Below, piece after piece: positions 14,331-35,166 of a stretch of DNA of 64,000 bases; position 1 is the first letter of the stretch, and each line of letters starts with the position of its first letter. This DNA is from Escherichia coli. GTDB taxonomy: Bacteria; Pseudomonadota; Gammaproteobacteria; Enterobacterales; Enterobacteriaceae. The position numbers and the translations under genes were made by a program. The stretch lies in NCBI RefSeq assembly GCF_044324875.1, contig NZ_CP172185.1; one strand, 5' to 3'. The notes beneath the pieces were generated by a model. The model saw only the letters and a list, made by a program, of their open reading frames with translations, did no database searches and had not been told where the DNA came from.

Positions 14331-15092
14331 TCAAATAGCTAAAGCATTCATCGTGTTGCCCTTATTCATACCCGTGTGCCTTTGACAACGGTACTCCTTA
14401 GAAACTCTCTTTGGACTGTTGCCAAAATGTTTGCGGAACGCATAAATAAAATAAGATGTACTCGCATAACCACATTGTTCGGCAATTTTATTGACTGAAC
14501 CTTCTACGCGTATCAAATTTTTTGCGTGCTGCATTCTGGCATCTAAAAGAATCTGTGAGAATGTCGTTTGCTCTTGCTTTAGTTTTTTCTTCAACAGGCT
14601 TTCACTGATGTACAGGCAGTCACAAATATCTTTCAGCTTCCATGGGTGCGCCAGCTTCATGTTGACAATATTTCTCACTTTCCCGGAAACGGATAGCACA
14701 CCGTTAGTTAATAGTGTAATGAAACCTTTGCATGTGGCAAAAATAGACAGGCAAGAAAAAAGCAAAAGTTCTGAAAAATTATGATGATTGCGTTCTTCCG
14801 AGTTGAGATAAGCAATCATTTCATTAAGCAATCCAGTCGGTACATTTGAAGCACGTAAAAACTTCGCAGGAACAGGCACCGTCACTGTCTGGATGTTAGT
14901 GCATTGTAGATATTTTTTAATGGTATTTTCATTAAATCCGATTTCTTTGAAATGCCGCTCATAAGGTTCAAAATGCGTACGAACAGCGTTATCTACCATC
15001 AGGATCTCGCCGTCAGAGAAGGCGTAATCTTTATCTAAAATGTTAGCGTTGAAGGCATGATGAATAAATATAACAGAACAAACGAGCGACAT
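14331..15092 (-). CDS. ydeO: AraC-family acid-resistance regulator YdeO
   Basis: 253-aa ORF with C-terminal AraC-type helix-turn-helix; downstream of safA as in the safA-ydeO operon. Confidence 0.92.
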   Translation of the reverse strand: MSLVCSVIFIHHAFNANILDKDYAFSDGEILMVDNAVRTHFEPYERHFKEIGFNENTIKKYLQCTNIQTVTVPVPAKFLRASNVPTGLLNEMIAYLNSEERNHHNFSELLLFSCLSIFATCKGFITLLTNGVLSVSGKVRNIVNMKLAHPWKLKDICDCLYISESLLKKKLKQEQTTFSQILLDARMQHAKNLIRVEGSVNKIAEQCGYASTSYFIYAFRKHFGNSPKRVSKEYRCQRHTGMNKGNTMNALAI

Positions 15093-15166
15093 TTTATCTC
15101 CTTAAAACAATAAAGTTTTTATCGATACTTTTTTAACATTTCATATTTATAATTTGCTGTTTATTT

Positions 15167-15364
15167 TCAGTCTTGCAAACTATTGATAATGAAATGTGTA
15201 AGATCCCTTGCAATGCGCCCCATTTCTGAAATACCCAGCTGATCAATTGCCGAAAAAATGGCTATCAATGTAAGGGTCAGTAATAAGACAACCACAATTA
15301 CAGACATGATCCCTTTATAGTTGTCTCTTTGCGTGATTTTATTTTTCACTATGGTCGCATGCAT
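15167..15364 (-). CDS. safA: small membrane protein SafA (EvgS/EvgA to PhoQ connector)
   Basis: 65-aa ORF with a single hydrophobic transmembrane segment, immediately upstream of ydeO. Confidence 0.85.
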   Translation of the reverse strand: MHATIVKNKITQRDNYKGIMSVIVVVLLLTLTLIAIFSAIDQLGISEMGRIARDLTHFIINSLQD

Positions 15365-15465
15365 TTCAAATGTGTTTATTAAACGAATGACGTTAATCAG
15401 TATGCTTAATATAACAGGCTGGAGAATAGAGGAAATAGGACTGGCGCTTCAGTACTGAGCGGAGT

Positions 15466-15483
15466 TTCTTACAGCTGTAGGCG
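15466..15483 (-). promoter_or_regulatory. EvgA box upstream of safA
   Basis: TTCTTACA-GC-TGTAGGCG, an 18-bp inverted repeat of the TTCYTACA half-site type, about 100 bp upstream of the safA start; a near-identical copy is upstream of ydeP. Confidence 0.7.
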
Positions 15484-15601
15484 GAGGTATATATCTTATA
15501 ACGAGCAGTTTAATTTAGCACATGTGAGTAAATTGCGCGACAATGGTCAATGAGGAATTCTTCTGCTGTGCGGATGACAGCAGAAGAAATGAGGAGGCGA
15601 A

Positions 15602-17881
15602 TTAATTTGATGGTTCTAATTCAACCGGAATACTTTTATAGCCAGGAATGCCACTTAATGGATCGTGGTTATCAAGTGTTAGCATGTGATTCGATTCTGG
15701 AAAATAGGTCACCAGTGAGCGGTCAGCCATAGGGTAAATGACCACTTTTAATCTATCCATGCGGCGTGAGCTTCGCTTACCGTCTGGCGTAAGCGCAATA
15801 AGATTAACTCTTTCGCCGTTTTTTACACGGCAAATTTTAGCTTGTTTAGCACTCATAAAGACCACATCTCGTTGACCGAATACCCCTCGATAGCGATCAT
15901 CCATACCATAAATCGTCGTGTTGTACTGATCGTGACTGCGTACTGTCGCCATGACTAGCTTACTGTTAAACGCTGAAGAGGGATCTTCTAACAGCCCTTT
16001 ACTGGTAATGAAATTAGCCTTACCTGACGGCGTCATCCAGCGCCTTTCAGCAGCTGCGTTTATCAGGTGAAAACCTCCAGGATGTCGGATGCGCTGGTTA
16101 TAGTCGGCGAACTCTGGCAGCACAGCTTCAATGTCATTGCGAATGCGATCATAATCTTCCACCAGATACTCCCAGGCTACCACGCTCTGGGGTAGTGCCG
16201 CCTGCGCGATACCCGCGACCACTGCACACTCTGATTTCAGCATTACACCGGCGGGTTTTAACACGCCACGCGAGGCATGAATCATCGACATTGAATCCTC
16301 AACGGTTACCGCCTGCGCACCGCTTTTTTGCATGTCAATCTCGCTACGTCCCAGAACCGGCAGAATATAGCTATGCCGTGCGGTCAGCAGATGAGAGCGG
16401 TTAAGCTTAGTGGCTACGTGTACCGTCAGATCTAATTGTGTTAACGGTACAGCGCTTGCTTCCCGATCTGGCATTGCCAGTGCAAAGTTGCCCCCCATGC
16501 AGATCAATGCTCGAGCCTGCCTCGTACATATTGCTTGCATGCTGGCAATTGCTGCATGTCCAGGTGCATGAGGTGGGGTGAAACCATAGCGCTCACCCAG
16601 GCGAGCCAGAAACTCTGCAGACGGTTTCTCGGTGATACCGACGGTTCGGTCGCCCTGTACATTAGAGTGACCTCGTAGTGGGCAGATACCCGCACCAGGC
16701 TTGCCAATGTTACCTTTCATCAACAGCAGATTGACCAGTTGCTGTACATTCTGGGTACCATGTTCGTGCTGAGTGATCCCCATTCCGTAACAGATAATGG
16801 TGCGTTCGGCAGCGGCATATGCATCAGCCAGTTCGGCGATTTGAGTCTGACTTAGTCCAGAAATACGCTCGATATCTTTCCACTCGGAATTGAGAACGTC
16901 ACGGCGTAGCTCGTCAAAGCCGACGGTATGCGTTTGAATAAATTCGTCATCCAGCAATGAGGGCCGACCTGCGGCGCTTGCAGCATCATCGCGCTCAATT
17001 AACAGGCGCATCATCCCCTTGAGCAACGCCATATCACCACCAATGCGCACGTTGTAGTAGGCACTGGCCAACTGAGTCTCAGAGTTCGTCAGCATTTCAA
17101 ACGGGTTTTGCGGTGCGGTAAATCGCTCCAGGCCACGTTCCTGTAGAGGATTGATGGCGATCATTTTCGCTCCCCGTTTCACTAAAGCGCGCAACGAAGT
17201 CAACATGCGAGGGTGGTTTGTACCAGGGTTATGCCCAATGCAAATGACTAAATCGCATTTCTCAAAGTCTTCCAGCAACACGGTCCCTTTACCTACACCG
17301 ATACTCGCTGCCAAACCCACACTGGTCGGTTCATGGCACATGTTGGAGCAGTCGGGGAAGTTATTGCTCCCGTATTCACGAGCAAAAAGCTGATAAAGAA
17401 AGGCAGCTTCATTGGAAGTGCGGCCCGAAGTATAGAATTCAACCTGATTGGGATCACTATAGCTTTGAAGGCGTTCGCCAATTTCGTCGAAAGCTTGTTG
17501 CCAGCTTAATGGCTTGTAACAGTCGCTGACGGCATCATATTTCAAAGGCTGGGTGAGACGCCCCGCAGCCTCAAGCTCGTGATCTCCCCAGTTAAGTAAT
17601 GATTGAACCGTATTCTCAGCAAAGAAAGAGGCATTTACCTGCTTATCCGTGACTTCCCAGGCGATTGCTTTTGCGCCGTTTTCACAAATGTCGAATGACG
17701 CACTGTGCTTAGGATCTGGCCATGCACATCCCGGACAGTCAAAGCCCTCTGGCTTATTCATGTCAAACATGGCAATAACATCCTGGCGTATATCCATCTG
17801 CTTACGTACTGCATTCGCTACGGATTTAACAGCACCCCAACCACCGGCAGCTCCCTGGTAGGATTCAATTTTTTTCTTCAT
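15602..17881 (-). CDS. ydeP: molybdopterin oxidoreductase YdeP (formate-dehydrogenase-like, acid resistance)
   Basis: 759-aa ORF with N-terminal Cys cluster ([11 protein letters not shown]) and molybdopterin-binding domains. Confidence 0.92.
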
Positions 17882-18124
17882 TTGCTTATCCTGTGTGGAA
17901 ATGAATTATTAGGATTTGTAATAGCGATGATGCACAGTATATACAAAGGGATTATCGTCAACATGGATATATAAGAGTAGGGGACTACTCTCTTTCTATT
18001 TTAATCTATTATCGTTAAACAAAAGATTAAATACGATAAATTAAGCATCATCTCTCATAGTGTTTAAATTAACATATTTTTCAATATAAAAAATAAGACT
18101 CTGGCTTCAATTGTGCGCGGATTT

Positions 18125-18142
18125 TCTTACAGATGTAGGATA
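18125..18142 (-). promoter_or_regulatory. EvgA box upstream of ydeP
   Basis: TTCTTACA-GA-TGTAGGAT; shares 16 of 18 positions with the safA copy at 15466-15483. Confidence 0.7.
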
Positions 18143-18213
18143 ATAGCCTTCACAAAATAATTATCCGCGCAATCTTCGTGAATGGAGCGCATAGACCAAT
18201 GTCAAAATCACAA

Positions 18214-19128
18214 TTATTCATAGATAAAAGTGACACCAATGACTGACTGGACGGTTCCGGCTGCAACCTTGTTTCCTGTTTGTCCATAGGTTGCGCTTAA
18301 ACCCAGAGGTACTTTGCTTTTATTTACTGTCCCCAGGGAGACGTTTTCTCCCGTAGCCAGTATTTTTCCATTACGCATCAGAGAGACACCCACTCCCGAT
18401 GCTTTTGTTGCATCTGGTGCTGTGTTAGCAAACACTTGTCTGGCACTGTCAGTGGTAGCACCCGAAAGATAAAATGAGAGCTTTTGTTCACTTGAGCAAT
18501 ATACGCCAAGGGGTATTTCTGCGCTTCCAGGAAAGTCCGGGAGATTCACGTTGACATTACGACTATCAACGGTGCAGCCGCCTGTTGGCATAACAACACT
18601 GTTATTTGAAATAATATTCCACGTAAAATTACGCGGATTTCCACTTCCTAACGTGGCAATTTTATACATATGAATACGGGCAATAACTTCCCCGGCTTTT
18701 ATGACAACTCCACCGGCCGCACCGACTGGGGTAATATAGAGTTTTAACGGTAATGGCATCGGTGTCTTATCACCAATATCTAATACATTAGTATTTGTCG
18801 TCAACGGGAAGGGGTAGGTCACATTATTCCAGTACAGCGATCCTTTATATGACTGTAGAGAGCCTGCGAAAGCTGAGCCTTGTACCAGGTTTATATGATC
18901 AGTGTCGTACCAGCCGCCGTAATCATTCCAGCAACTTATATGCTGAGACAAGTCTACAACCAGATTCTGGCCCGGTTGTATTACAGGGTCGAGATTAACA
19001 TAAACAGAGGTTGTACCTGCTCCAATACTTGACCCGCCATCGACATTACAACTGAAGGCAAAAACTTTGCCTGCCATTAATAGAAGATAAATACCGAACA
19101 GAAGCTTCATACTTATTGTTTTACCCAT
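18214..19128 (-). CDS. ydeQ: fimbrial tip adhesin-like protein (FimH-like)
   Basis: 304-aa ORF with signal peptide and C-terminal pilin domain; last gene of the chaperone-usher operon. Confidence 0.85.
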
Positions 19129-19186
19129 GATATATCCTAAGGTTAAAAAATTGATTTAAAAAGAGGCTAAGAAAATCGAATCGACG

Positions 19187-19690
19187 TTATTGCCAGGTGT
19201 AGATCACATTGATTAGCGCCTCGATCGTTCCCTGGCTTGCGTTTCCATTCACCGTGATAGCTCTTGCCTTAAGTGGAAACTGTGCATTACGAGTGATCTC
19301 ATCAACAATAACCGTTTTGCTATCGCCATTTTTTAACGTCGCATCCTGGTCATCCCTTAGCTCTATCTGAATATTTTCGGCAGTACCTTCATTTTTGTAA
19401 TAACCCGTATTGTCAGTTGAACCTGTCACGATTGCCGTCACTGCACTTGTTTCAACCGGACAATCGGTTAATGACAAAGTAATATTGTGCCAGCCTGATG
19501 CAGAACCAGGTTGTTGCAGATTGCGCGTATAAAGATCCCCGAGATTAACGTTAGCTTCTTTGGTTTGAATAGTGCAGGGTTTAGCGACTACCCGACCATT
19601 AACAGTGATAGTGACATCGGCGGCCTGGAGAGTTGCTGTGAATAACGCGCAAAACGTAGCTAACAGGAACCTCTTGTGAAGTCTTTTCAT
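19187..19690 (-). CDS. ydeR: minor fimbrial subunit (FimG-like)
   Basis: 167-aa ORF with signal peptide, Cys pair and conserved C-terminal pilin strand. Confidence 0.85.
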   Translation of the reverse strand: MKRLHKRFLLATFCALFTATLQAADVTITVNGRVVAKPCTIQTKEANVNLGDLYTRNLQQPGSASGWHNITLSLTDCPVETSAVTAIVTGSTDNTGYYKNEGTAENIQIELRDDQDATLKNGDSKTVIVDEITRNAQFPLKARAITVNGNASQGTIEALINVIYTWQ

Positions 19691-19702
19691 ATCTGACTCT
19701 GA

Positions 19703-20233
19703 TTATTGAAATTCAAGGGTAAAGGTTGCCGAAGCCCTCACCAGTCCCGGATTGACGGACTTCTGAGTTGACTTCAGACGAGCGGAGTAAGGCAAAATAT
19801 TGTTCTGTTCTGGTACCAGTGGGATCCACTGCATCCCGGCATGAAGGTCATTCAATTTCACCGGACGCATATTTCCGTCCAGTATTTCTATACCCAAACC
19901 GGAGGCCGTATTGCTTCCTTCATCCAGTTTCAACAGAGTATTATTTTCTGCATCCTCAATCCCGTTAAATGCAACCCGAACCCCCGTTGTCCCTTTACTG
20001 CATTCACTTAACGTAATCTGAAAAGGGACGGCTGGACTTGTGCTACCGGTCGTTGGAAATTGTCTGGCACTGTATTTTTGGAGATCTACGGTAAAATTAA
20101 GCGAATCCGATGAGACTGTGCAGCCATAATCGAGGACGCGCCCGCTAATTTTAATAACGCTATCTGCGGATAAAGCAGAATAGGTGGTTAACCCCAGACA
20201 TAAACCGAGGAAAATAATGTTATTGTATTTCAT
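19703..20233 (-). CDS. ydeS: minor fimbrial subunit (FimF-like)
   Basis: 176-aa ORF with signal peptide and pilin fold features. Confidence 0.85.
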   Translation of the reverse strand: MKYNNIIFLGLCLGLTTYSALSADSVIKISGRVLDYGCTVSSDSLNFTVDLQKYSARQFPTTGSTSPAVPFQITLSECSKGTTGVRVAFNGIEDAENNTLLKLDEGSNTASGLGIEILDGNMRPVKLNDLHAGMQWIPLVPEQNNILPYSARLKSTQKSVNPGLVRASATFTLEFQ

Positions 20234-20246
20234 AATCTATTGTTCC

Positions 20247-22898
20247 TTAGCGACAGATTGCTGTCTGCTGGTTCAGTAAGGTACCAGGAGAAACTTCAGG
20301 AAGCTTGTACTCGACAATACAGTTTGAGTTTTTATCTTTGCCCCATGAAACCTGTAATTTCCCTGACTGTGGAAGTCCAGTCAGATAAACCTGACCGTTT
20401 TCCGCGACAATGCTGCCATTTTTATTCTTTCCGTGAGTGACAATTGCACCGAATGGAACGCTCTTATTACCGTACTTCAACGTCATTAATACTTTCCCGC
20501 CGATTTGTGCATTAAATGTTGCTCTGGCAATAGCACCGTGAGTTGGGATGACAGTGACCACGGTTTCATCCAGTTCAACATTATCTGCAAGGGAATTCGC
20601 GTTAAGAGCGACACGATTTTCTCTATATTCTGTCGCAAATGGTAATATGGCATAGCCACGCCAGTCGGTATGAATACCGGTCTGGTTCTCTATTTTGACA
20701 TTATCAGCGCCAGGAGCCTTAACCAGAACCATTGTGTCGCCCAGCGGCTGTCCAAAGGTGATGCCATCAGCATGAGCAATAATGCCACCACTCATTCCGT
20801 AATAAATCTGGCTGCTGTCACCACTCCGACTGTAACCGACATTCGTATTACCGTAAGCTCCACGATAATTAAGAGAACTGTAACCACTGGTGCCAGACGA
20901 TGTATTACCCCCGTGGGTGTTACCGACCTGAACACTATAATTCAGGTTATTATCCGGCAGCAGAGTGCCATAAACTCCCGATAGATTGGTCATGCCGCCT
21001 TTCAAATCGTTTGACTTACTGTAACTGGCGTTTGAATTACGAAATGCCGACTGACTGTCTGTACGCATCCAATGACTGAAGGGAACATTAAGCGTAAAAG
21101 CAAGTAAATGATCCCGATCGTTTTGCCATATATTATTGGAATAGCTGTAATTCAGCGAAGTCGTAATATCACCAAACGGCACATTTAATCCAAATGATAT
21201 TTGCTGGTCGCTGCGTGACGTGTTCCAGTAACTTTGGCGACTGGCACTAAAAAATGTCGTACCGTAATTTCCAAGCTGCTGAGAGATGCTTATTTGTTCC
21301 TGACCACGCTTACTGTAGAACAGATTAAAATAATCAATAAATTGTGTCTGCTCGTTGCTGTCTCCGGTAGGAGGCTTGACGGTGTAACCACTCATTCGAC
21401 TGTAGGCACTGTCGGATAAGTTATAAAAACCTTGCGTAGAATAGCGATATCCTGCGACCTGGATATTGGTTCCCGTCTGGTAGAAGGATTTGCTGTAGAC
21501 GGATTTAATCGATTGCCCGCTGTGACGGGTGCCATCTGCAAGTGTCGTATTGGCCTGCGTGATATCGAAAGAAAAGGCACCAAAAAGTCCTAAATCTTTA
21601 CCAATACCAAGGTTGAAGGCCTGATAATCTTCTGCAATTTGCATTCCGCCATAAGGTGTCCAGTTTCCTTCCAGTCCATGCATCAAGCTACCTTGTATGA
21701 ACTTGGGGGAGCTTTGCAGGTTATTTCCACTACGATATTCCCCCATGGCAAGCGCATAACGCGTATATCCAGCACGTTGGAGAACCGGAACAGACGAATA
21801 AGGAACATATAATGTCTGAATACTGCCGTCTGCCTCTTTTATGGTTACTTGCAGATCACCACCATTGGCCGCAGAGTTGATATCATCAATAGTAAAAGGG
21901 CCGGGTGGGACAGTAGTCTGATAAACATCGTATCCATTCTGTTTTACACTCACTTGTGCGGTGCCGCGGGCAATACCATGAATCACCGGAGCGAAACCAT
22001 GTTGGCTATCGGGCAACATCGCTTCTGTTGAATTTATTTTGAGGCCACGAAAGTTCACACTATCAAAAATATCGCCATCGGTATAACTATCACCTACCGT
22101 TAAGCGTGAGCGTAAGGGAATAATGTCACGTTCAGCCGACGTATTGATATGCTGCCATTTATTGCTGTCAGATGAATTGCTACTCCCACTGTTATAACTC
22201 CACGTTGAGTTATCGCGCAGTCGCCAACTACCAATGTTGATGCCACTCTGTAAATTCAAATATGCATAGTTGGATTTTCCTGCATTATGGTTACTACGAT
22301 TATTAATAGAATTACCATTAAAACTATAGTTTAGAAGCCCAGCATTTATTCCTTCTTCCCACAGATCAGGAGAAACATAGCCGCGAGCCATTCTGCCAAC
22401 ATAAATTTGCGGAACGGAGAGTGACAGATGTTGCTGACCAACATCAAACTCAGTTGATGCGTCGGCCAAACGATCCTGAAGTGGTGTGCATGCGCTGTTG
22501 TCCGGCACATGTTTTTCTGCCGAATGTTCTTTATTGTCTAATAACGCTGATTTTTTTATGCCAAGACTGACTAGAAGATCTGTACTCAGGCATGGGATGA
22601 GATCTGCGTTATTATCATCTGCAATAAAAGTAATATCCCGACTAGTAATAAATTCGTCGTTCAAATAAATGTCGACCCGATATGTACCAGGTGGTGCCTC
22701 GCGTCCCTTAGTAAAGGCGGATAAATCGACAGATTCAGCAAGATCATTGCTTAAAAACCGTGGATTAAAATAATACTCTGCGTCAACGGGAAATACCGCA
22801 GTTGCTAAGCCAAGGGCAATGGTAAGCCGTGCAAAGCGAGGCAGTAGTAACACCTGATGCATACGATATGCCTTAAATGCGGCACGAAAGGCTGTCAT
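20247..22898 (-). CDS. ydeT: fimbrial outer-membrane usher, full length (FimD-like)
   Basis: 883-aa uninterrupted ORF of typical usher length; start may be at the internal MHQVLLL. The K-12 counterpart ydeT is remembered as a truncated pseudogene. Confidence 0.85.
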   Translation of the reverse strand: MTAFRAAFKAYRMHQVLLLPRFARLTIALGLATAVFPVDAEYYFNPRFLSNDLAESVDLSAFTKGREAPPGTYRVDIYLNDEFITSRDITFIADDNNADLIPCLSTDLLVSLGIKKSALLDNKEHSAEKHVPDNSACTPLQDRLADASTEFDVGQQHLSLSVPQIYVGRMARGYVSPDLWEEGINAGLLNYSFNGNSINNRSNHNAGKSNYAYLNLQSGINIGSWRLRDNSTWSYNSGSSNSSDSNKWQHINTSAERDIIPLRSRLTVGDSYTDGDIFDSVNFRGLKINSTEAMLPDSQHGFAPVIHGIARGTAQVSVKQNGYDVYQTTVPPGPFTIDDINSAANGGDLQVTIKEADGSIQTLYVPYSSVPVLQRAGYTRYALAMGEYRSGNNLQSSPKFIQGSLMHGLEGNWTPYGGMQIAEDYQAFNLGIGKDLGLFGAFSFDITQANTTLADGTRHSGQSIKSVYSKSFYQTGTNIQVAGYRYSTQGFYNLSDSAYSRMSGYTVKPPTGDSNEQTQFIDYFNLFYSKRGQEQISISQQLGNYGTTFFSASRQSYWNTSRSDQQISFGLNVPFGDITTSLNYSYSNNIWQNDRDHLLAFTLNVPFSHWMRTDSQSAFRNSNASYSKSNDLKGGMTNLSGVYGTLLPDNNLNYSVQVGNTHGGNTSSGTSGYSSLNYRGAYGNTNVGYSRSGDSSQIYYGMSGGIIAHADGITFGQPLGDTMVLVKAPGADNVKIENQTGIHTDWRGYAILPFATEYRENRVALNANSLADNVELDETVVTVIPTHGAIARATFNAQIGGKVLMTLKYGNKSVPFGAIVTHGKNKNGSIVAENGQVYLTGLPQSGKLQVSWGKDKNSNCIVEYKLPEVSPGTLLNQQTAICR

Positions 22899-22939
22899 TA
22901 TTAATTCCGATTGAGTTTATTATTAATTAGGTCACTGGC

Positions 22940-23659
22940 TTACTGCATGGTTGCCTTAATACGCGGAGTTAATGCACCGTAATCATTGATCGTCTGAAAA
23001 CTGATATCCCCGGTTGCAGCATGCGGGATATCCACCGATACTTCACCTTTTGGCGGCACCATGGTGTTTGGGAGATTGCTATTTCCTGCTTTCAAATTTG
23101 TTACGGTAATGAAGTAGGGCGTTGGATTAATAAGAGTGAGTTTGCTGCCGCTGCGACGAAACCGAAGCATTGCAGGCGCTTCTTCAGGTGCCATTGCCAG
23201 GTTCGTGGGGCGATAAAACATTTTTATGCGGCTAATAATTGCCAGCTGTAATGTATTCTCATTCTTCTGATCTTTTTCCATAGCAGGAATAGCTTTAACA
23301 TTAACCCAGAACAGGCTTTCACGGTCGCCTGGTAACTGATGATTAGTGGCGTTGATTATCCGCAGCGTATTCTCTTTTTTACCTTGCATGGAAAAAAGCG
23401 GTGGCGTAATGACAAACTGGGTGTCTTTTTGGTCACCTGCATTTTCTATCCATGACTGAATGAGATAGACACTGGCAGGATCATTATTCGTGACAGGCAA
23501 TAAAACCTGTTTCTGGTTTGCCGGATAAATTACCCGCGTCGCACCCAGTGCGACAGCTGCGTTGGCAATGGTGCTATGGCAAGCAAAGAGCAATAAAAGT
23601 AACACTGTCGCCATAAAGGAAATAGAGTAGGGGGTACGCGTAGTTTGCATCTGATGCAT
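22940..23659 (-). CDS. periplasmic fimbrial chaperone (FimC-like)
   Basis: 239-aa ORF with signal peptide and PapD-like chaperone features; start codon uncertain. Confidence 0.85.
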   Translation of the reverse strand: MHQMQTTRTPYSISFMATVLLLLLFACHSTIANAAVALGATRVIYPANQKQVLLPVTNNDPASVYLIQSWIENAGDQKDTQFVITPPLFSMQGKKENTLRIINATNHQLPGDRESLFWVNVKAIPAMEKDQKNENTLQLAIISRIKMFYRPTNLAMAPEEAPAMLRFRRSGSKLTLINPTPYFITVTNLKAGNSNLPNTMVPPKGEVSVDIPHAATGDISFQTINDYGALTPRIKATMQ

Positions 23660-24012
23660 TCTCCATGTGTTAAGAGGATAAGCGGGAAAACCGTTACATC
23701 AGACAATCAGTAAATATTGCTAATACATTGGCGACTCGCCGGGTTTCCAGACTTAATGCGTTTGTAATAAATGTTGGTTCTCTTTTAATAGGAAAACCTT
23801 GCTACAAAGTAAATATTTTAAATAACAGTAAGTTTAACTACTGTTGTTTATTGATCGTTTAGATATTATGTGATTTTTTCATACCGCTCCAAAACACAAA
23901 CTATTCCTCATTAATAATGAGATGAACATTGGTGAATTGCTCGGGTGTGCGTAGCCATGCTACACACACCCTGTTTCAATTTCAGATGACGTATAGCCAC
24001 CTTAAGATTGAA

Positions 24013-24576
24013 TTATAGATATTGAACTTTGAAGGTCGCATCAGCGTTTGCAGTACCAGCTACTGACTGCCCGAGAGCAATATATCGAGCCTGGAACGGC
24101 AATATATTCGTGCCATCAATCAAGTCAGTTTTAGCACTAAAAGTGGCACCATCAAGTATTAATACCTCACCCGTACGGTCCAAAATTTGAATACCGACAT
24201 TTTGGGCAGAGCCTGCCGCTGAACTCTGAAGCGCTAATGTGTCGTCATTACTGGTGACAGTAGTACCCAGGAATGCAACAGCTGCATTACTGGAAACATT
24301 GGTATCACAATCATTCAGCTTGATATTGAAGCCAACGGCGGAGCTGAGGTCACCCGCTTTAGCCAGACGAGAAGAACGGACCTGACCCAGCTCAACCGTT
24401 TGGTTCATTGATTCTGAATCAATCGCACAAGCGGCATTTACCACTTCACCTTTAAAATGAATAACACCGCCATTAACAGTGGTCGTTACTGATTCATCAC
24501 CCTCGGCTGCGCTTACCGCAGCAGACGACATCGCCAACACAGAAACGACAATCATACCGACATGTTTGAGTTTCAT
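24013..24576 (-). CDS. major fimbrial subunit (FimA-like, F9-type)
   Basis: ORF track start 24624; start [23 protein letters not shown] at 24576 preferred (signal peptide, GGAG RBS upstream); C-terminal ...TFKVQYL pilin strand. Confidence 0.85.
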
Positions 24577-25009
24577 AATTCTCCAAAATTTATATTTAAG
24601 TAGCTGAATAAAGAAAGTTAACAATTAAGTCATTCTGTTATTGCTTATAAAACAAGAATCATTCTTGATGGGATATTGCCCTGAGAATATAGTTTCCAGG
24701 GTTATTACATTTCACGAAGAACGATAATATCTTTAAATTACAAGGACACCTAATCACAACAAGTTTATTGCAGCACTTGTTGTAGAGAGTATTTGCAAAG
24801 ACATTTTATGTCGCTAAATAACATTACGATTTCATTATGCATGTTATTTATAAACAGCGACTAAACAGAATATTATTGCGAACAAGGGAAGTGTCAGGAA
24901 AGGTCAAGAGCGGCCAATGGTTTATATGGCTATAAAACATTAGCTATGGTTAATGTTTGCCTGGTGTAACTAACACGGAATTGCTCTAAACAGATAAGTG
25001 CAGGGTTTA

Positions 25010-25264
25010 TTAAAGCTGACCGACAGACTTTCTTAACCTGGTAATATCTCTCTTAGGTGACTCTCCAAACATCCGCGAATATTCCCGACTGAAATGGGAT
25101 AAGCTTTCGTAACCGACAGCATAGGCTGCAGTGGTGACATCGTAATGTTCATTCAGCATCAGTCGCCTGGCTTCATTGAGGCGTAGCCATTTCTGATACC
25201 GGAGTGGACTCATTCCCGCAAGCTGTCTGAATTGTTGATGGAAAGAGGGGGTGTTCATTTGCAC
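25010..25264 (-). pseudogene. yneL: AraC-family regulator remnant (C-terminal HTH only, yneL-like)
   Basis: 84-aa ORF containing only the second AraC HTH region (…GMSPLRYQKWLRLNEARRLM…); no N-terminal domain is encoded upstream in frame. Confidence 0.7.
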
Positions 25265-25544
25265 GCGGTTTGCCAGCCTGACTCTTCAACGCAGGGAAGA
25301 TGCGGCAAACGGCAAACCTGCATACCAGCCAGCCTATATCAGGTATGCACAGGCCAATCATGAAAGAGGAGAGGCTTTATGTTCTGGAACCCTGAAGTAA
25401 TAACGACGACCGTAAAATCGCTTCGCATCACTCAAATTCCATTTAACTATTCTGGGTTTGAGGGATATACATAATTGACTTCAGCACCAGAAACAGCATA
25501 ACAAACTGTTTTAAATGGATATTAATCAAATGACGATTCAAACT

Positions 25545-25579
25545 CACAGTTATGAACTCAGTTTTGGTTCATAACTGTG
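25545..25579. repeat. perfect 13-bp inverted repeat with 9-bp spacer
   Basis: cacagttatgaac-tcagttttg-gttcataactgtg; a related palindrome gttcatgaac lies at 25619-25628. Located between the AraC remnant and the accessory cluster. Confidence 0.6.
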
Positions 25580-25678
25580 TTAAACGCTGTCCATAAATCA
25601 CTCGATGTCACGTCTGTTGGTTCATGAACTGATCGTTCTAATTTTGTGATGTGCGTCAGGTTTTAGTGTTCAGTAATG

Positions 25679-26482
25679 TTACCTTTTACTCGATGATCGA
25701 TTGTTTAGCACCTCTCCCACAACCGGAGCAGCGGTAAATGCGTTTGGCCAGCCAGCATAGAAGGCGGCCTGGGTAACGATCTCACCAGCTTCCTCAACAG
25801 AAAGTCCATTATCCATTGCTCTATTGAGGTGATAGCCAATCTGCGCGCTCTGTCCGGATGCGATTAAGGCGCTGACCGTAATCAGGCTTCTGTCGCGGGG
25901 TTTCAGCGCGGGTCTTTGCCAGAGATCCAGGAAGAGTGGATCAGCAGTGAATTTAACCAGGCCTGGAGATATTGGGCCAACATTTTTTTCCACTGTCTCT
26001 GAACGCTGCTTTTCTGCTTCCTGATTGAGAGGAAGCAGGCCCGGAGAAGCTTCAGGAAGTGCATCTGCCGTGACGCCACGAGTTTCAAATACTGCTTTGA
26101 TCACGCTGACGGCTGACATTGCATTTGGCCAACCTGAGTAGAACGCCAGATGGGTAATGATTTCTGATAATTCCGCTGGCGTCACGCCGCTATCGAGAGC
26201 GACGTCAATATAGTGCTTAAGCTCGGCAGGCTGGTTGCGGGCAATCAGCATGGCGACGGTCACCACACTACGATCCCTCGGTGAGAGGGCGTCGCGTGTC
26301 CACAGATCTTCAGTAATAGCTTCGCGACCAAAGCGCGCGAGAGCCGGTGAGACGGAACGAATATCAGCTTCCGAAATCGCTGACGGTTCTATTTTCATCA
26401 TAGCTTTACCTCTTGTTTCCTCAGCATTGGCAAAATCAGAAATAACAAGCGACATAGCCGCTGCTGCAAGTACGCTTTTCAT
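25679..26482 (-). CDS. secreted tandem carboxymuconolactone-decarboxylase (CMD/AhpD-like) domain protein
   Basis: 267-aa ORF; signal peptide MKSVLAAAAMSLVISDFANA; two internally repeated ~100-aa CMD-like domains (DLWTRDALSPRDRS… and DLWQRPALKPRDRS…). Confidence 0.8.
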   Translation of the reverse strand: MKSVLAAAAMSLVISDFANAEETRGKAMMKIEPSAISEADIRSVSPALARFGREAITEDLWTRDALSPRDRSVVTVAMLIARNQPAELKHYIDVALDSGVTPAELSEIITHLAFYSGWPNAMSAVSVIKAVFETRGVTADALPEASPGLLPLNQEAEKQRSETVEKNVGPISPGLVKFTADPLFLDLWQRPALKPRDRSLITVSALIASGQSAQIGYHLNRAMDNGLSVEEAGEIVTQAAFYAGWPNAFTAAPVVGEVLNNRSSSKR

Positions 26483-26497
26483 GTTAATCCTTACTGG

Positions 26498-27223
26498 TCA
26501 ACGTTGCGGCTCCTGTTTGATTCCGCCTTTGTTACGAAGAAATACCGGTTTTACCGGGATTGCGTCCTTCCTGGCGCTCATATGCGCCGTTTGCCTGAGG
26601 TAATCCAGGATGTGCAGCGTTTGTCGGTGCAGTTGATAATCCTCCTCACTGGCGTAAATCTCATAGAAATACCAGCGTTTTGGAGTCTCTGAATCTGTAC
26701 CGGCATACATGGCTAACACGCCTTTCTCTACTTTGAGCGACTCGACCATTTCAGGAAGGACGATGTTTCTAAATTCGCTCTGAAATTCAGGCTTTACTTC
26801 GACGATCACCAGATTATTGATAGTTCGTTCATTCGGTATGATGTGTTTGTCGCCCAGAAACTGTGGCTCCAGGGTAATTTTCTTCTTCCTGTCAATAATG
26901 TCAGGTGCACGAGCAGCGAATGCTTTGTATGGGGCGGCATTGAGATGTTTGCGATAAGCACGCTCATTTTCATAGAGTTCGAACATGAATGCCTGACCTG
27001 AATTGTCGCTGCGTTGCAGGGCATACATCGCCAGTGTACCTGCTTCATGATCAACCGAAGCGGAAATCGTCTGTCTGGCCACGTCTGCAAAGTCGTTGTC
27101 CCGATCGGGTCTGATGCCGAGCTCGAAGATATTCATCTCCGACTTATTCGGCGCGTCCGGTTTTGTTGCAAAGACAGGGCTGCTTATTAGCATGCAAATT
27201 AAAAGCATAAAAGTCTTTTTCAC
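26498..27223 (-). CDS. secreted tandem ABM (antibiotic-biosynthesis-monooxygenase / quinol-monooxygenase-like) domain protein
   Basis: 241-aa ORF; signal peptide MKKTFMLLICMLISSPVFA; two ABM-like halves (LAMYALQ…FELYENERAYRKH and LAMYAGT…YEIYASEEDYQLH). Start is GTG at 27223 or ATG at 27208. Confidence 0.75.
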   Translation of the reverse strand: MKKTFMLLICMLISSPVFATKPDAPNKSEMNIFELGIRPDRDNDFADVARQTISASVDHEAGTLAMYALQRSDNSGQAFMFELYENERAYRKHLNAAPYKAFAARAPDIIDRKKKITLEPQFLGDKHIIPNERTINNLVIVEVKPEFQSEFRNIVLPEMVESLKVEKGVLAMYAGTDSETPKRWYFYEIYASEEDYQLHRQTLHILDYLRQTAHMSARKDAIPVKPVFLRNKGGIKQEPQR

Positions 27224-27338
27224 GATGATCTTTTTACTGACGTTACTGTTTAAGACGTTCGATCAACTGGTGCTGGTAAGAACGTAACCGACCGCTACTG
27301 GCGCTCTCAAAGACGAGAGGAGGAAAAGTGAATAAGGG

Positions 27339-30317
<2,979 letters not shown>

Positions 30318-30319
30318 TG

Positions 30320-30892
30320 TTATTCTCCCTCTGGATTATTCACGACGGAATTGAGCAGTTCGACAAGCCTTGAAGCGTGTTCCCGGGCAAGCGTTTTTTG
30401 CTGCGCGATTTTGTCGGCATCCCGGTCGGCATAGCTGATACCGCAGGTATAAACCGGCGTCAGCAGCTCAAGATTGCACAGCCTTGCCGTGGTTTCGAAC
30501 GGAATAAGATACTCTTCAATGGTATGGCCAAAGAAACTGTCGACGGTATAGAGCTCCTCTGGCGCTCCCGTTGTAAAGGAGAGGATCAGCTTTTTACCGC
30601 CCAGTTTCGCCGTTGAGCCATGCGCGAAGCCGTGAACAAAGACCTCGTCCAGCCATTTTTTCATTAATCCTGGCAGCCCATACCAGGAAAAAGGGAACTG
30701 CCAGACAATCACATCGGCCCTGAGCAGGCTTTCCTGCTCCGCCGCGATGTTGAATTTGCCATCCGGATAGAGCCTGTCCAGACGACGAATCTCAACATCA
30801 GGAAGGGCGGTCTCCACTTCATCAAGAATAGTGGCATTGGCGACGGAATGGGTAAGCTCAGGATGACCTGAAATAACAAGGATATTTTTCAT
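30320..30892 (-). CDS. flavodoxin-like NAD(P)H:quinone oxidoreductase (KefG/KefF/MdaB-like)
   Basis: 190-aa ORF MKNILVISGHPE…; resembles KefG-type quinone reductases; stop is 2 bp upstream of the disrupted AKR start (same operon). Confidence 0.75.
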   Translation of the reverse strand: MKNILVISGHPELTHSVANATILDEVETALPDVEIRRLDRLYPDGKFNIAAEQESLLRADVIVWQFPFSWYGLPGLMKKWLDEVFVHGFAHGSTAKLGGKKLILSFTTGAPEELYTVDSFFGHTIEEYLIPFETTARLCNLELLTPVYTCGISYADRDADKIAQQKTLAREHASRLVELLNSVVNNPEGE

Positions 30893-31041
30893 TTCAATCA
30901 GTTAAACATCTTTGGTGAATATTAAATCCAGTATAGAGTGACAACATTATTTTTTTAGAGCAGTAAAGACTCATTCACTTTTAGACAAAAACTAATAATG
31001 GTCAACTGTTCTCATTGTACCGGTCATCACGAACCCGTGAA

Positions 31042-31718
31042 CTACGCCGTGATGCCCAGTAAACGTTCTGCATTGCGAAATGCGATGGCCTCTTTTTCAG
31101 CCTTGTTGACGGGCAGACTGTCTATAAAGGTTTTTACACCGTCCAGGGTCTGATAGGGATAATCGACGGAGAACAGGATCCTTTCAGCACCCATTAACGC
31201 GTAGATAAACTGGAAGTGCGGCAGTGTTAGCATATGGCGGGGTAACGTAAACGTGTTCCTGGAAGGTTCTCGTTAGCGTGCGTGACAGACCCGTTGCAGC
31301 CAGTGGTAGGCTGTCATCAAGACGCTGGAGCCAGAAGGGTAACATCTCCCCCCAGTGGCCACTGATTACCTGCAGGTTGGGATATTTATCAAATGCGCCC
31401 GATAACATCAGCCGCAACAAATGGATCCCCGCTTCGTGATGCCAGCCCCAGGCAAACATAGAAAGCCTGGCGTTGACCTCTGCGCTGAAGCCCGTGAAGT
31501 AGGCCTGCTGTACGCTTTTAAGCGGTAACCCGGGATGAAGATAGAGTGGCACATTCAGTTTATTAAAGCGGGAAAGCAGGGAGTCGGTCAGGATTATGAC
31601 CATCAGCGACGGTTTTCCCCCAGTCGCCAAGGAAAGGTGCCTGCTCAAGCGCAACAGGCATACACGCTCGCCCTAACTCGCTGTCGAGATAATGTTCTTC
31701 GAGGCAAATGATTTTCAT
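31042..31718 (-). pseudogene. amidohydrolase-2 family (ACMSD / gamma-resorcylate decarboxylase-like) gene remnant
   Basis: Three consecutive frames carry pieces of one protein: MKIICLEEHYLD… (from 31718), …LYLHPGLP…GWHHEAGIHLLRLMLSGAFDKYPNLQVISGHWGEMLPFWLQR…, …ERILFSVDYPYQ…; at least two frameshifts and an apparently shortened N-terminal region. Confidence 0.7.
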
Positions 31719-31820
31719 ATTCTCACCATTCATACAAAGCAGTAAAAGTGATACAGATTAGAATCACCCGGAACAGCCCGTTCGTGTGTGTCATTCATGA
31801 CAGTCTGTTCCGGACGGGCT

Positions 31821-32768
31821 TTACACCATCGGTTTTTCCCAGGCGCCTCGTGTATCCACTCTGGTCTCTGCGGCGAGTTGTTCCAGCAGGATGATTTCCT
31901 CATCGCGTAACTGGATGTCTGAAGCGCAGGCGGCGTCCAGAACGTGATGGACTTTAGTCGCACCAACGAGGGGAAGGGTACCTTTCGCAATAGCCCATGC
32001 GATGGCTATCTGTGCCACGCTGGCATTCCTTTCGGCTCCCATTTTTTTCATGGCGGCGGTTAGTCTTTCTATCTGCGGCAGTACTGCGTTATAACTTTCG
32101 GCCCGGCCACTCCCGGCAGGCATGGGATGATTTGAATCATAACGACCACTGAGCGCGCCTTGCTCCAGGACCATGTAAGCAAAGAACGTGATGTTATTTT
32201 GTCGGCAATAATCAAGGATCCCGGCCTCTTCAGAAGCGCGATAGAGCAGGCTGTAGTGATTTTGTACTGCACTGAGGGAATAACCGGAAGCGTTAAGGAT
32301 TTCATTGGCGCGTCTGATTTGTGCCAGATTGTGGTTGGAAACACCTACGCGTTTTACCTTACCGCTTTGTAAAAGTGGGATCAATCCTGGCGTCCATTTT
32401 TCGACGTCGAGGGGATTATGGATCCAGTAGATATCAATCGCGTCCACGCCCAAGCGCCCAAGGCTGGCCTCAAGCATATCGCTGACAGGCTGCGCAGACT
32501 GCTTGTCCGCAATCTGCGGCGTGAATTTGGTGGATAAAATTATGTTCTCGCGAGGAAACTGACGGACTAATGCTCCCAGCGCAGTCTCGGAACTCCCCAT
32601 ACCATATACTGCTGCGGTATCCCAGAGATTGAGGCCCTTACTCATGGCCGCAGTGAACACTTCTGCCATCTGAGTATCAGAAAGATGATTACCAAAGACG
32701 GTGTCGCCGCCGGCAAAGCCTGTGCCCCAGGACCATGTACCTAGTGCGACTGGAGGTAGTGTTTTCAT
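31821..32768 (-). CDS. aldo-keto reductase (intact)
   Basis: 315-aa ORF MKTLPPVALGTWSWG… with AKR family features throughout. Confidence 0.85.
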   Translation of the reverse strand: MKTLPPVALGTWSWGTGFAGGDTVFGNHLSDTQMAEVFTAAMSKGLNLWDTAAVYGMGSSETALGALVRQFPRENIILSTKFTPQIADKQSAQPVSDMLEASLGRLGVDAIDIYWIHNPLDVEKWTPGLIPLLQSGKVKRVGVSNHNLAQIRRANEILNASGYSLSAVQNHYSLLYRASEEAGILDYCRQNNITFFAYMVLEQGALSGRYDSNHPMPAGSGRAESYNAVLPQIERLTAAMKKMGAERNASVAQIAIAWAIAKGTLPLVGATKVHHVLDAACASDIQLRDEEIILLEQLAAETRVDTRGAWEKPMV

Positions 32769-32829
32769 ATTCAGCTCCTGAAAAAAGGCCGGATCGTGGC
32801 TGACTTAAACCGGCCAAGTAAGGAATTAA

Positions 32830-33531
32830 TTAAGCTGTCCGGCGGAGTGCATTTAACAGCGCCACACCAACCCCATGTGCTGAAGCGGGATTCTGCCCCG
32901 TGATAAGGCGATCGTCGGTAACCACGTTTTCAGACCAGTTTGGAGCTTCATGATAAAGCGCACCATGCTCGCGAAGTGCGGTTTCAAGCAGGAAGGGAAC
33001 CACATCTGTTGTGTGAACTTCTTCCTCTTCCTTGTTGGTAAAGGCCGCCACATTTTTCCCTTTTATCAGGTATTCGCCGCTACTGAGTTTTGCGTCAACC
33101 AATGCCGCAGGCCCGTGGCAGACGGCTGAGACAATCCCATCACTTTCATACACTTCGCGGATAATACGCTGGGCATCCTGATTATCACGGAAATCCCACA
33201 TGGTCCCATGACCACCTGCAAAGAAAACTGCGCTGTAATCGGCACCTTTCAGCTCGGATAACGCAGGTGTTGTTGCCAGGCGCTGCTGAAAATCGGTTTC
33301 GTTCCAGTACCAGGCGTTAACAGGGTCGCTGAGGTTAAATCCATCCACCGGTGGCTGCCCCCCGCGAATACTGGCTATTGTTGTTTTTATTCCGGCATCT
33401 TCCAGTACTTTCAGCGGATGAGTCAGCTCGGCCAGGAAAAAACCGGTTGGTACACCGGATGCGCCTTTAATCGGATGGCTGGAAACGACACATAGCACTG
33501 GTTTATATGCAGGTTTCATATCGGTCCTCAC
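32830..33531 (-). CDS. DJ-1/PfpI family protein (class I glutamine amidotransferase-like; glyoxalase/deglycase candidate)
   Basis: 233-aa ORF with the nucleophile elbow …SAVCHGP… typical of DJ-1/PfpI proteins. Confidence 0.8.
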   Translation of the reverse strand: MRTDMKPAYKPVLCVVSSHPIKGASGVPTGFFLAELTHPLKVLEDAGIKTTIASIRGGQPPVDGFNLSDPVNAWYWNETDFQQRLATTPALSELKGADYSAVFFAGGHGTMWDFRDNQDAQRIIREVYESDGIVSAVCHGPAALVDAKLSSGEYLIKGKNVAAFTNKEEEEVHTTDVVPFLLETALREHGALYHEAPNWSENVVTDDRLITGQNPASAHGVGVALLNALRRTA

Positions 33532-33839
33532 TCTTTATTTTTAAATTCATCGGCGAAGAGATTTTCCCAGTTAATAAAGGAGCCAAGCGGTATACACTCG
33601 AAGCTTAGTAAGCCTGCTTTTGCCAACGGGAATTCGGCCATAACGTTCATCGCTTCATCGACAGAGTCACATTCAAGAAAAATAGCGACGCCAGGTCTGT
33701 CCTGACGGAAGTAGATGTCGCGGATGAAGCCTGATTTATACAATCCCCAGGCGTGCAGAGCTTCAGCGTTGAGGTGCGGAGCATATTTCTCCAGCGATGC
33801 TACAGGGGCAGGGATATCCAGACATAAAATTCGCATCAT
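33528..33839 (-). CDS. small Dabb-fold protein (muconolactone-isomerase-like / YciI-like)
   Basis: 103-aa ORF; stop overlaps the DJ-1 start by 4 bp (translational coupling); AGGAG RBS upstream; family call is by pattern and is approximate. Confidence 0.6.
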   Translation of the reverse strand: MMRILCLDIPAPVASLEKYAPHLNAEALHAWGLYKSGFIRDIYFRQDRPGVAIFLECDSVDEAMNVMAEFPLAKAGLLSFECIPLGSFINWENLFADEFKNKE

Positions 33840-33975
33840 AGTCTCCTGAACTCAGGTCGTAGTAGAAAGAGACTAAAGTATAAGAGGCGTATTTCAGGAA
33901 GATTAGAGGGTCATTGACTTAAGCATTTTTAGACTGTACTTAATAATCAGGCGAGAATTGCTTTAGGAAAACATT

Positions 33976-34875
33976 ATGAATAACGCTCTTTATAACCAGA
34001 TTCGCATCTTCCAGAGCATTGCGCGGGAGGGCAATATTTCGGCAGCCGCAAGGAAACTGGAAATTACGCCTCCCTCCGTCAGCAATGCACTAAAGCTGCT
34101 GGAAGAGTATATCGGTCATCCGCTTTTTGTGCGTACGACCCGCCGTATAGAGCTGACGGAAACCGGTCAATTATTGCTGGAACAGACCGCTGCGGCGGTG
34201 GAGTCGCTGGAAAACTCACTTGAAAGCATTCGCGACCAGCATCAGGAGCCCTCAGGGATGGTGCGAATTACGCTCTCGCGTTTTGCCTACCTGTTAATTC
34301 TTAAGCCTGCGATGGCAGAATTCTGTCAGCAATATCCGGGTATACAGTTAGAAATTTCGGTCTACGACGGTACCGTGAATATCATCAAAGAGCGTTTTGA
34401 TCTGGGGATCCGTTTTGGCGATATTCTTGAGGGAGGGGTGGTGGCCCGACCGTTAATGAAACCGTTTCGTGAAGGATTATATGCATCCTCAGCGTATCTC
34501 TCCCGACATGGAACGCCTGAAGTGCCGGCAGATCTCTGTCATCACCAGCTGATTGGTTACCGTTTTATCACCAACAACCGCATCCTTCCGCTGCTCCTGA
34601 ACGATCGCGGTGAGCAGTTGACCGTTGAGATGCCGGGGCAGTTAATCAGCAACGATATTGACGTTATGGCAGACGGGATCCGTAACGGGCTGGGAATTGG
34701 GCGCTTGTTTGAGCCTGTCTGGCAGTTACAGCCGGACAGGGAGCGCTTTATTCCGGTGATGGAGAGCTACTGGAAAACCTACCCGCCAGTGTATCTCTAT
34801 TACCCCAAAAACGCGGGTAAAACGAAAAGAGTGAAGGCCCTGATTGATTTTCTGATATCCACTACGGGGCGATAA
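33976..34875 (+). CDS. LysR-family transcriptional regulator
   Basis: 299-aa ORF with N-terminal LysR HTH (…IFQSIAREGNISAAARKLEITPPSVSNALKLLEEYIGHPLFVR…); divergent from the minus-strand enzyme cluster across a 136-bp intergenic region. Confidence 0.88.
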   Translation: MNNALYNQIRIFQSIAREGNISAAARKLEITPPSVSNALKLLEEYIGHPLFVRTTRRIELTETGQLLLEQTAAAVESLENSLESIRDQHQEPSGMVRITLSRFAYLLILKPAMAEFCQQYPGIQLEISVYDGTVNIIKERFDLGIRFGDILEGGVVARPLMKPFREGLYASSAYLSRHGTPEVPADLCHHQLIGYRFITNNRILPLLLNDRGEQLTVEMPGQLISNDIDVMADGIRNGLGIGRLFEPVWQLQPDRERFIPVMESYWKTYPPVYLYYPKNAGKTKRVKALIDFLISTTGR

Positions 34876-35166
34876 AGACGATAACGCCTCGTTCGGTATG
34901 GAGATGCATCGAATGGCATTGTGAGTTTTTTTTCACAGATGGGCGTAATCGTCAGTGGATTTTACATACAAGGATAGCGCCCACATACTGACATCATTAA
35001 TTAACGTTGGGTGAGGTTTACCGGGGGGAGGGGAAAGCGAACCAGGAGATGGAGGTGGCCAATCTGGTACGAACCGCCGCGTAGCTTGCACGGCAAAAGC
35101 TGCTGACTGATTCATCAGTTAAGCTACTGAAAGAGCGGAACACATGAACTTAAGAACAAACCCACC

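Follow-up and report, generated by a model that had tools for sequence, protein, structure and literature searches.

The F9 chaperone-usher operon of Escherichia coli is described under several names, as Z2200-Z2206 in O157:H7, f9 in CFT073 and fml in UTI89, where the adhesin is FmlH. The literature already describes its six genes, the variable region on the 5' side and the disrupted form found in phylogroup A, and the intact operon has been published as the majority state (Wurpel 2014). In CFT073 the f9 promoter has been mapped by 5' RACE, with an 18-bp spacing and a transcription start 251 nt before the ATG (PMC3966885), and the F9 lectin binds Gal/GalNAc, not mannose, with the residues of its ligand pocket named (PMC5866590). 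The K-12 type 1 operon, fimAICDFGH, belongs to the same class, with the shared gene order A-C-D-F-G-H and a two-domain adhesin of the FimH type. K-12 also carries an orthologous remnant of the F9 operon, ydeQRST-yneL. Here, we analysed a window of 64,000 nucleotides of E. coli contig NZ_CP172185.1, in which six chaperone-usher open reading frames, all on the minus strand and each with a single terminal stop, occupy positions 18214-24576. We read this region, with a probability of roughly 95%, as an intact chromosomal F9 (Fml/Yde) operon, a paralogue of type 1 fim that has neither fimI nor a fimB/fimE switch. No sequence evidence contradicted the F9 identity. The features are as follows.

18214-19128, minus strand: tip adhesin FmlH (YdeQ), 304 aa, N-terminal lectin and C-terminal pilin domain (Pfam FimH_man-bind and Fimbrial)
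19187-19690, minus strand: minor subunit YdeR (FimG-like), 167 aa (Pfam Fimbrial)
19703-20233, minus strand: minor or adaptor subunit YdeS (FimF-like), 176 aa (Pfam Fimbrial, 4e-23)
20247-22898, minus strand: outer-membrane usher, full-length, 883 aa (Pfam PapC_N, Usher and PapC_C)
21474-24754, no strand: segment missing from K-12, 3281 bp (blastn breakpoints)
22940-23650, minus strand: periplasmic chaperone, 236 aa (Pfam PapD_N and PapD_C)
23651-24012, minus strand: non-coding spacer, AT-rich (36% GC), 362 bp, at the fimI position of fim operons
23943-23971, minus strand: 13-bp stem-loop in the major-subunit 3' UTR, 42 nt past the stop
24013-24576, minus strand: major subunit (F9 pilin), 187 aa (Pfam Fimbrial, 8e-31)
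24577-24863, minus strand: f9 promoter and 251-nt 5' UTR (sequence compared with the CFT073 map)
25010-25276, minus strand: AraC-family remnant yneL, 88 codons (Pfam HTH_18/HTH_AraC only)

A reading made earlier from the sequence alone had proposed six intact, co-directional genes including an 883-aa usher, and the open reading frames, the Pfam domains and the lengths in reference strains all agree with it. The six proteins equal their counterparts in O157 180-PT54, UM146 and strain 300033 in length, with 0-24 substitutions, and alignment revealed no frameshift in any of the six, the usher and the chaperone included. At the DNA level the operon is 97.6% identical to that of O157 and 97-99.9% identical to thousands of E. 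coli chromosomes; it has the six genes, the gene order and the ydeP site of F9/Fml/Yde, and nothing sets it structurally apart from that system. Its surroundings are those of F9: ydeP lies on the 3' side (ydeO, safA and ydeP at 14331-17881, syntenic in the annotation of three strains), and on the 5' side a variable region precedes hipBA, with hipA homology from 35166, beyond a 9.7-kb island. In O157 and K-12 hipA follows directly, whereas in this strain an oxidoreductase island comes between, with an insertion of the IS21 family. The island fits the published variable 5' region. The 5' junction takes four forms across genomes: at 24989, 25219 or 25447, or continuous.

The encoded machinery is that of a classical chaperone-usher system (fim-like, gamma-type), with a two-domain PapD-like chaperone and an usher that has N-terminal, barrel/plug and C-terminal domains. 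The usher covers its Pfam models end to end (PapC_N 1-146 of 146, Usher 1-549 of 549, PapC_C 1-66 of 66), is 57% identical to FimD and measures 883 aa in each of the three strains used for reference; K-12 ydeT matches its C-terminal part only. The chaperone is 60% identical to FimC, and its R39 and K143 align with the subunit-binding R8 and K112 of FimC, so the Arg/Lys pair is conserved. Among the subunits, YdeR is 58% identical to FimG, is as long as in O157 and UM146 and is named ydeR in annotations, and YdeS is 44% identical to FimF and equals the reference strains in length. The major subunit is 70% identical to FimA and its protein is identical to the O157 copy; its start is likelier at 24576 (PGAP, three strains) within a full open reading frame of 24013-24624. 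Cysteine pairs and C-terminal motifs of pilins are conserved in the F9 subunits. The adhesin scores 6e-78 against FimH_man-bind and is 47% identical to FimH, but residues 25-184 (160 residues) are 100% identical to the lectin domain of crystallised FmlH (PDB 6AOW), and the pocket residues F1, Y46, D53, K132, N140 and R142 are all conserved. The tip adhesin is FmlH, with a pocket predicted from its sequence to bind Gal/GalNAc.

These comparisons leave next to no probability that the locus is a mere copy of the type 1 operon, as automatic naming would have it: PGAP calls the first gene 'fimA: type 1 fimbrial major subunit FimA', and its product exceeds the NCBIfam FimA equivalog cut-off (174 against 140 bits). 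Its proteins are only 44-70% identical to their K-12 Fim counterparts, the adhesin matches the lectin domain of FmlH and not FimH, and the locus lies by ydeP instead of gntP. Moreover, the features that mark type 1, namely fimI, the recombinase genes fimB and fimE, the invertible element fimS and a mannose-specific FimH, are all absent from it. The low Fim identity and the FmlH-identical adhesin refute the copy and leave the F9 operon as the reading.

Upstream of the major subunit, the promoter elements can be placed base by base: a -35 element TAGTCG at 24863-24858, a -10 element CATAAT at 24839-24834, a transcription start G at 24827 and the ATG at 24576. Both elements, the 18-bp spacing and the distance of 251 nt agree with the f9 map of CFT073. 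The upstream DNA is AT-rich (33% GC), which is consistent with H-NS repression and low-temperature expression. Invertible fimS measures 314 bp, similar in size to a 300-nt interval found here between the arms of a 15-nt inverted repeat (24820-24834 and 25135-25149, 14 of 15 positions matching) that flanks the -10 and -35 elements. It is nevertheless highly improbable that the f9 promoter sits on such a switch. The inverted junction occurs in none of 5426 complete genomes, on which ground we reject the idea; the right arm lies inside the coding sequence of the AraC remnant and is missing in B2 strains, where homology ends at 24989; no recombinase gene adjoins the promoter; and one such repeat is near the chance expectation for 2 kb of AT-rich DNA. 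A pap-like Dam/Lrp switch was also rejected, with zero GATC sites in 23857-25630.

The AraC-family gene beyond the promoter had been described as reduced to its C-terminal helix-turn-helix (HTH), and Pfam and PGAP bear this out. The remnant, whose open reading frame spans 25010-25264, covers part of the first HTH and the whole of the second (HTH_18 positions 6-76 of 80), and PGAP flags it as a pseudogene 'missing N-terminus'. A protein search for a full-length version gave only short or partial relatives, some of which bear the AraC_N domain PF06719. Homology begins abruptly at 25276, and the DNA upstream of this position has no similarity to fuller AraC relatives; hence the N-terminal part was removed and did not decay in place.

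The interval between the major-subunit and chaperone genes had been given as a 353-bp gap without an open reading frame of at least 60 aa. No such frame exists, as stated, but the length becomes 362 bp (23651-24012) because the chaperone more likely starts at its second in-frame ATG, 23650 (PGAP, the same in three strains), than at the first, 23659. Small open reading frames in the spacer were rejected; they are non-ATG, 22-44 aa long and have 1-nt indels between strains. Spacer divergence is 5.2-5.8%, against 5.1-7.3% at 4-fold sites, about the synonymous rate, and therefore gives no sign of constraint apart from a hairpin. Rfam identified no known RNA family in 17900-25700 at E up to 1.

A fimI-like pilin gene once present in the F9 lineage and since decayed is an unlikely origin for the spacer. 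Its place is that of fimI in fimAICDFGH, a clear fimI homologue stands between the A and C genes in 47 loci of other genera found with the F9 chaperone, and a near-neutral rate of evolution is what a decayed gene would leave. Nevertheless, the degraded pilin gene suggested for 23660-24012 did not materialise, as translated, profile and DNA searches returned only noise. With 13 Fim and F9 proteins as queries, tblastn found no pilin similarity in the spacer at E up to 100 (best E 0.08). A FimI profile built from 48 sequences (K-12 FimI and 47 homologues) scored at best -1.7 bits over the six frames, within the range of 200 shuffles (mean -2.5, maximum 7.1), and blastn-short against the fimA-fimC interval found no DNA similarity past 11-mers. 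The spacer is also shorter than a pilin gene, 362 against 540 bp.

What does stand out in the spacer is the 13-bp stem-loop. For the 88-nt 3' UTR of the major subunit the folding energy is -35.5 kcal/mol (z = -6.0), a stability that none of 200 shuffles reached, and the sole variable stem position (A/G) pairs with T in each of the four strains. F9 and type 1 fim both have a hairpin after the major-subunit gene, longer and unrelated in sequence in F9, and a smaller one stands at the corresponding place in fim-type operons from other genera. Judged by its stability, by conservation across four strains and by the analogy with fim-type operons, the hairpin probably stabilises the upstream mRNA or acts as a partial terminator for it. 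The K-12 annotation places FimR2 between fimA and fimI; that the spacer and its hairpin together form a hitherto undescribed F9 intercistronic control element, for instance a processing site giving a stable 3'-UTR RNA like FimR2 or an internal promoter that serves the assembly genes, is speculative and quite unlikely.

Comparison with K-12 explains the remnant. The annotation of MG1655 lists ydeQ, ydeR, ydeS, a 382-aa ydeT and a yneL pseudogene, in line with the sequence-only reading; chaperone and major subunit are absent and the usher is reduced to its C-terminal part, so the claim that K-12 does not share the intact genes stands. Retained parts are 97.5% identical and the yneL remnant is the same. 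The alignment with K-12 stops at 21473 and resumes at 24755, which maps an internal K-12 deletion of 3281 bp (21474-24754). Usher codons 1-475, the chaperone, the spacer, the major subunit and 178 bp before its ATG are missing, while the promoter is kept. Read base by base, the junction is clean, with a 1-bp (C) microhomology and no IS.

In 3532 of 5426 complete E. coli genomes (65%) at least 80% of the region is present, a figure that measures coverage of the region, and the K-12 junction is found in 1375 (25%); the intact operon is thus what most genomes have. That this strain gained the operon recently by horizontal transfer, in place of a loss by K-12, is very improbable. The operon has a GC content of 39-47%, under the E. 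coli average, and no close orthologue appeared in other species in a scan of genome contigs. However, K-12 keeps an in-register usher fragment and the promoter at a clean junction, the whole region sits at the same chromosomal site in 65% of the complete genomes, and phylogroups differ at 4-fold sites by 5-7%, the level of core DNA passed on vertically. Outside E. coli the contig scan, which used exact peptide patterns and may miss relatives, gave one 99% match, whose contig bears the label Candidatus Nanosynbacter. Identity in the remaining genera was 37-70%, almost always with fim nearer than F9; a small number of distant loci, Proteus mirabilis L051 among them, were roughly equidistant from the two, and the scan revealed no ancestral state of the spacer.

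How the intact F9 operon would work can be drawn from what is established for chaperone-usher systems and published on F9. A sigma-70 promoter 251 nt before the major-subunit gene would give a single polycistronic transcript, repressed by H-NS and expressed mainly at low temperature. Sec would export the subunits, the periplasmic chaperone would capture them by donor-strand complementation, and the usher would polymerise them, first the adhesin, then the FimG-like and after it the FimF-like subunit, and last the major-subunit rod. The FmlH lectin at the tip would then bind terminal Gal/GalNAc glycans, for example Gal(beta1-3)GalNAc, and the hairpin after the major-subunit gene may keep the rod subunit in excess. 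In K-12 and the strains with the same junction, a single 3281-bp deletion took the first 475 usher codons, the chaperone and the major subunit and left the promoter fused to what remains of the usher, its C-terminal part.

Published work already covers the F9/Fml operon, from its prevalence and promoter to the adhesin structure and the disrupted state in K-12 and phylogroup A. Hence the finding is correct but ordinary, given that this well-studied operon is carried by most E. coli. The analysis adds some exact figures: the endpoints of the K-12 deletion, the frequencies in 5426 genomes and the failure of the searches for remains of a pilin gene in the spacer. The absence of a FimI-type subunit bears on how the F9 rod is terminated and anchored. 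As read from its genes, this strain would encode a complete Gal/GalNAc-binding pilus system.

Six structural open reading frames (ORFs), all uninterrupted, make up the fimbrial operon, with a fragment of an AraC-family gene upstream of them.

Features of the fimbrial operon and its upstream region (genes from the ORF listing and Pfam)
18214-19128, minus strand: adhesin with FimH-type lectin and pilin domains, 304 aa
19187-19690, minus strand: pilin, 167 aa
19703-20233, minus strand: pilin, 176 aa
20247-22898, minus strand: usher, 883 aa; PapC_N, Usher and PapC_C each matched end to end
22940-23659, minus strand: chaperone, PapD_N and PapD_C, 239 aa (236 aa from the second ATG at 23650)
23943-23971: 13-bp stem-loop, 42 nt past the major-subunit stop
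24013-24624, minus strand: major subunit, pilin, 203 aa from TTG (187 aa from the ATG at 24576)
25010-25264, minus strand: AraC-type HTH_18 only, no domain N-terminal to it, 84-aa ORF

A sequence-only reading had described six intact, co-directional genes, and this is accurate because the ORFs, Pfam domains and protein lengths match: the six proteins are exactly as long as their counterparts in strains O157 180-PT54, UM146 and 300033, with 0-24 substitutions. Its gene limits hold for the ORFs, but the likelier start codons, taken as those annotated by PGAP in the three strains, give a 362-bp spacer between the major-subunit and chaperone genes (23651-24012). Its claim that the AraC gene survives only as a C-terminal HTH also stands, with the extent corrected to 25010-25276.

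Judged from its sequence, the operon is F9 (Fml/Yde), a paralogue of type 1 fimbriae. The fimbrial genes are directly preceded by ydeO, safA and ydeP, the last three are labelled ydeS, ydeR and ydeQ by RefSeq, and across its 7.8 kb the region is 97-99.9% identical to E. coli chromosomes. Over residues 25-184 the adhesin shows 100% identity to the lectin domain of FmlH (PDB 6AOW and related entries), and all six ligand-contacting residues named by Kalas et al. 2018 (PMC5866590), F1, Y46, D53, K132, N140 and R142, are found in the adhesin. Identity to FimA, C, D, F, G and H of the K-12 type 1 fimbriae is 70, 60, 57, 44, 58 and 47%, respectively; residues equivalent to FimC R8 and K112 are kept in the chaperone, as are the Cys pairs and C-terminal motifs in the pilins. 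The major subunit (24013-24576) carries the RefSeq/PGAP name ‘fimA: type 1 fimbrial major subunit FimA’ since its score of 174 bits passes the NF011741 equivalog cut-off of 140, despite only 70% identity to FimA; the names fimF and fimG are also given to the minor subunits in some genomes. The fimA name is an annotation over-call, which could mislead automated fimbrial typing.

Published work restricts f9 to E. coli and Shigella, and our scan with the F9 chaperone, which covered one genome per species and, being pattern-based, can miss relatives, agrees with this. A single near-identical copy was found outside E. coli, on a 25-kb contig of a Candidatus Nanosynbacter metagenome bin (locus L006, JARKOR010000214.1); its F9 genes are 98-99% identical to those of E. 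coli and are most simply explained as E. coli contamination of the bin. All other matches are 37-70% identical and nearly all are nearer fim than F9, with a few distant loci, such as Proteus mirabilis locus L051, about equidistant from the two.

In K-12 MG1655 the locus comprises ydeQ, ydeR, ydeS, a ydeT of 382 aa and the pseudogene yneL, with hipA next. Its alignment to the window runs to 21473 and resumes from 24755, bearing out the earlier claim that K-12 holds only remnants and placing the deletion endpoints at window 21474-24754 (3281 bp). Read base by base, the junction is clean: it contains no insertion sequence, and its microhomology amounts to a single shared C. K-12 has lost codons 1-475 of the usher gene, the chaperone and major-subunit genes with the spacer between them, and the 178 bp preceding the major-subunit ATG; it keeps the promoter and first 73 nt of the 5' UTR, now joined to the usher's C-terminal part. 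Of 5426 complete genomes, 1375 contain the K-12 junction unbroken (301-bp probe across it), while at least 80% of the 7.8-kb region is present in one piece in 3532; other genomes show independent disruptions, for example an IS1203 insertion or shorter retained segments. These prevalence and loss figures agree with the literature, in which the finding, correct here, is already published. In the search of E. coli genomes with window 17900-25700, 14 of 5526 matching places sit on plasmid-classed records.

The f9 promoter mapped in CFT073 by 5' RACE (Wurpel et al. 2014, PMC3966885) is directly readable in the window.

Elements of the f9 promoter
24863-24858, minus strand: -35 TAGTCG
24839-24834, minus strand: -10 CATAAT, after an 18-bp spacer
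24827, minus strand: transcription start G, exactly 251 nt before the ATG at 24576

An inverted repeat (14/15; 24820-24834 and 25135-25149) flanks the promoter on both sides and resembles fimS in size. We reject a fimS-like invertible promoter: the inverted junction occurs in 0 of 5426 genomes, no recombinase lies nearby, and the right arm, which falls within the AraC remnant, is missing from B2 strains. A pap-type Dam switch is excluded by the lack of any GATC site between 23857 and 25630. This 1.77-kb stretch spans the major-subunit gene, promoter and AraC remnant; on average the window has a site roughly every 275 bp, and the absence here is probably due in part to low GC. Regulation of f9 is still best accounted for by the published H-NS and temperature control, which the 33% GC of the upstream region fits.

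Homology of the AraC remnant (yneL) to longer relatives, among them a Klebsiella protein of 128 aa (90% identity), starts abruptly at 25276 and covers the part from helix 2 of the first HTH on, with no similarity to them upstream. This indicates that the N-terminal two-thirds were cut away rather than decayed in place; some relatives carry a PF06719 AraC_N domain. The truncation is identical in O157 and 300033, and the K-12 remnant is slightly shorter. Upstream of the promoter, homology ends at 24989 (B2), 25219 (K-12-like) or 25447 (O157) and is continuous in 300033, which is the published variable 5' region.

Between yneL and hipA sits a 9.7-kb island (25448-35168; 7.8 kb without its IS), missing in K-12 and in O157 (clean junction 25447/35169). 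It encodes a CMD-family protein, a quinol monooxygenase-like ABM protein, two AKRs, a KefF-like NAD(P)H oxidoreductase, a DJ-1/PfpI protein and a divergent LysR regulator. An IS21-family element (28173-30126, 1954 bp; istA 28259-29281, istB 29278-30060; terminal inverted repeats TGTCA..GTGATCCAC) splits an aldo/keto reductase gene, of which the near-identical strain 300033 has an intact copy. The hipA homologue (35274-36515) is 138 bp (46 aa, in frame) shorter than K-12 hipA, with an alignment break at 35548 shared by O157; the HipA N-terminal domain is the only domain model matched, and the homologue may be an inactive or variant toxin.

Whether the spacer at 23660-24012 holds a degraded pilin gene had been raised as a question; similarity reveals none. 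Searching the spacer by tblastn with seven K-12 Fim and six F9 proteins gave a best E of 0.08; a FimI profile (K-12 FimI plus 47 homologues) scored -1.7 bits over six frames, inside the spread given by 200 shuffles (mean -2.5, maximum 7.1); and neither the fimA-fimC interval, compared as DNA, nor Rfam gave a match. ORFs in the spacer are non-ATG only (22-44 aa), and single-base indels separate strains. The spacer has diverged by 5.8% from O157 and 5.2% from UM146, as much as the operon's 4-fold degenerate sites (5.1% and 7.3%), so it looks unconstrained overall. F9 is genuinely unusual in lacking fimI, because in 47 of the scanned loci a clear fimI separates the A gene from the C gene; derivation of the spacer from a lost fimI is improbable.

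The exception to this lack of constraint is the stem-loop. The 88-nt 3' UTR of the major-subunit gene folds at -35.5 kcal/mol (z = -6.0), and the single variable stem position pairs with the opposite T either way, being A in the window and G in each of the three comparison strains. Fim-type operons of other genera have a smaller GGGCC-loop-GGCCC hairpin in the same relative place, where K-12 fim has the annotated sRNA FimR2. By analogy, the F9 hairpin would be the usual post-major-subunit stabiliser or attenuator setting subunit stoichiometry. The observation of a complete F9-type operon with remnants in K-12 is thus confirmed and its interpretation supported, for a system that is already known; any novelty is confined to a possible function of the conserved hairpin and of the spacer that lacks fimI.
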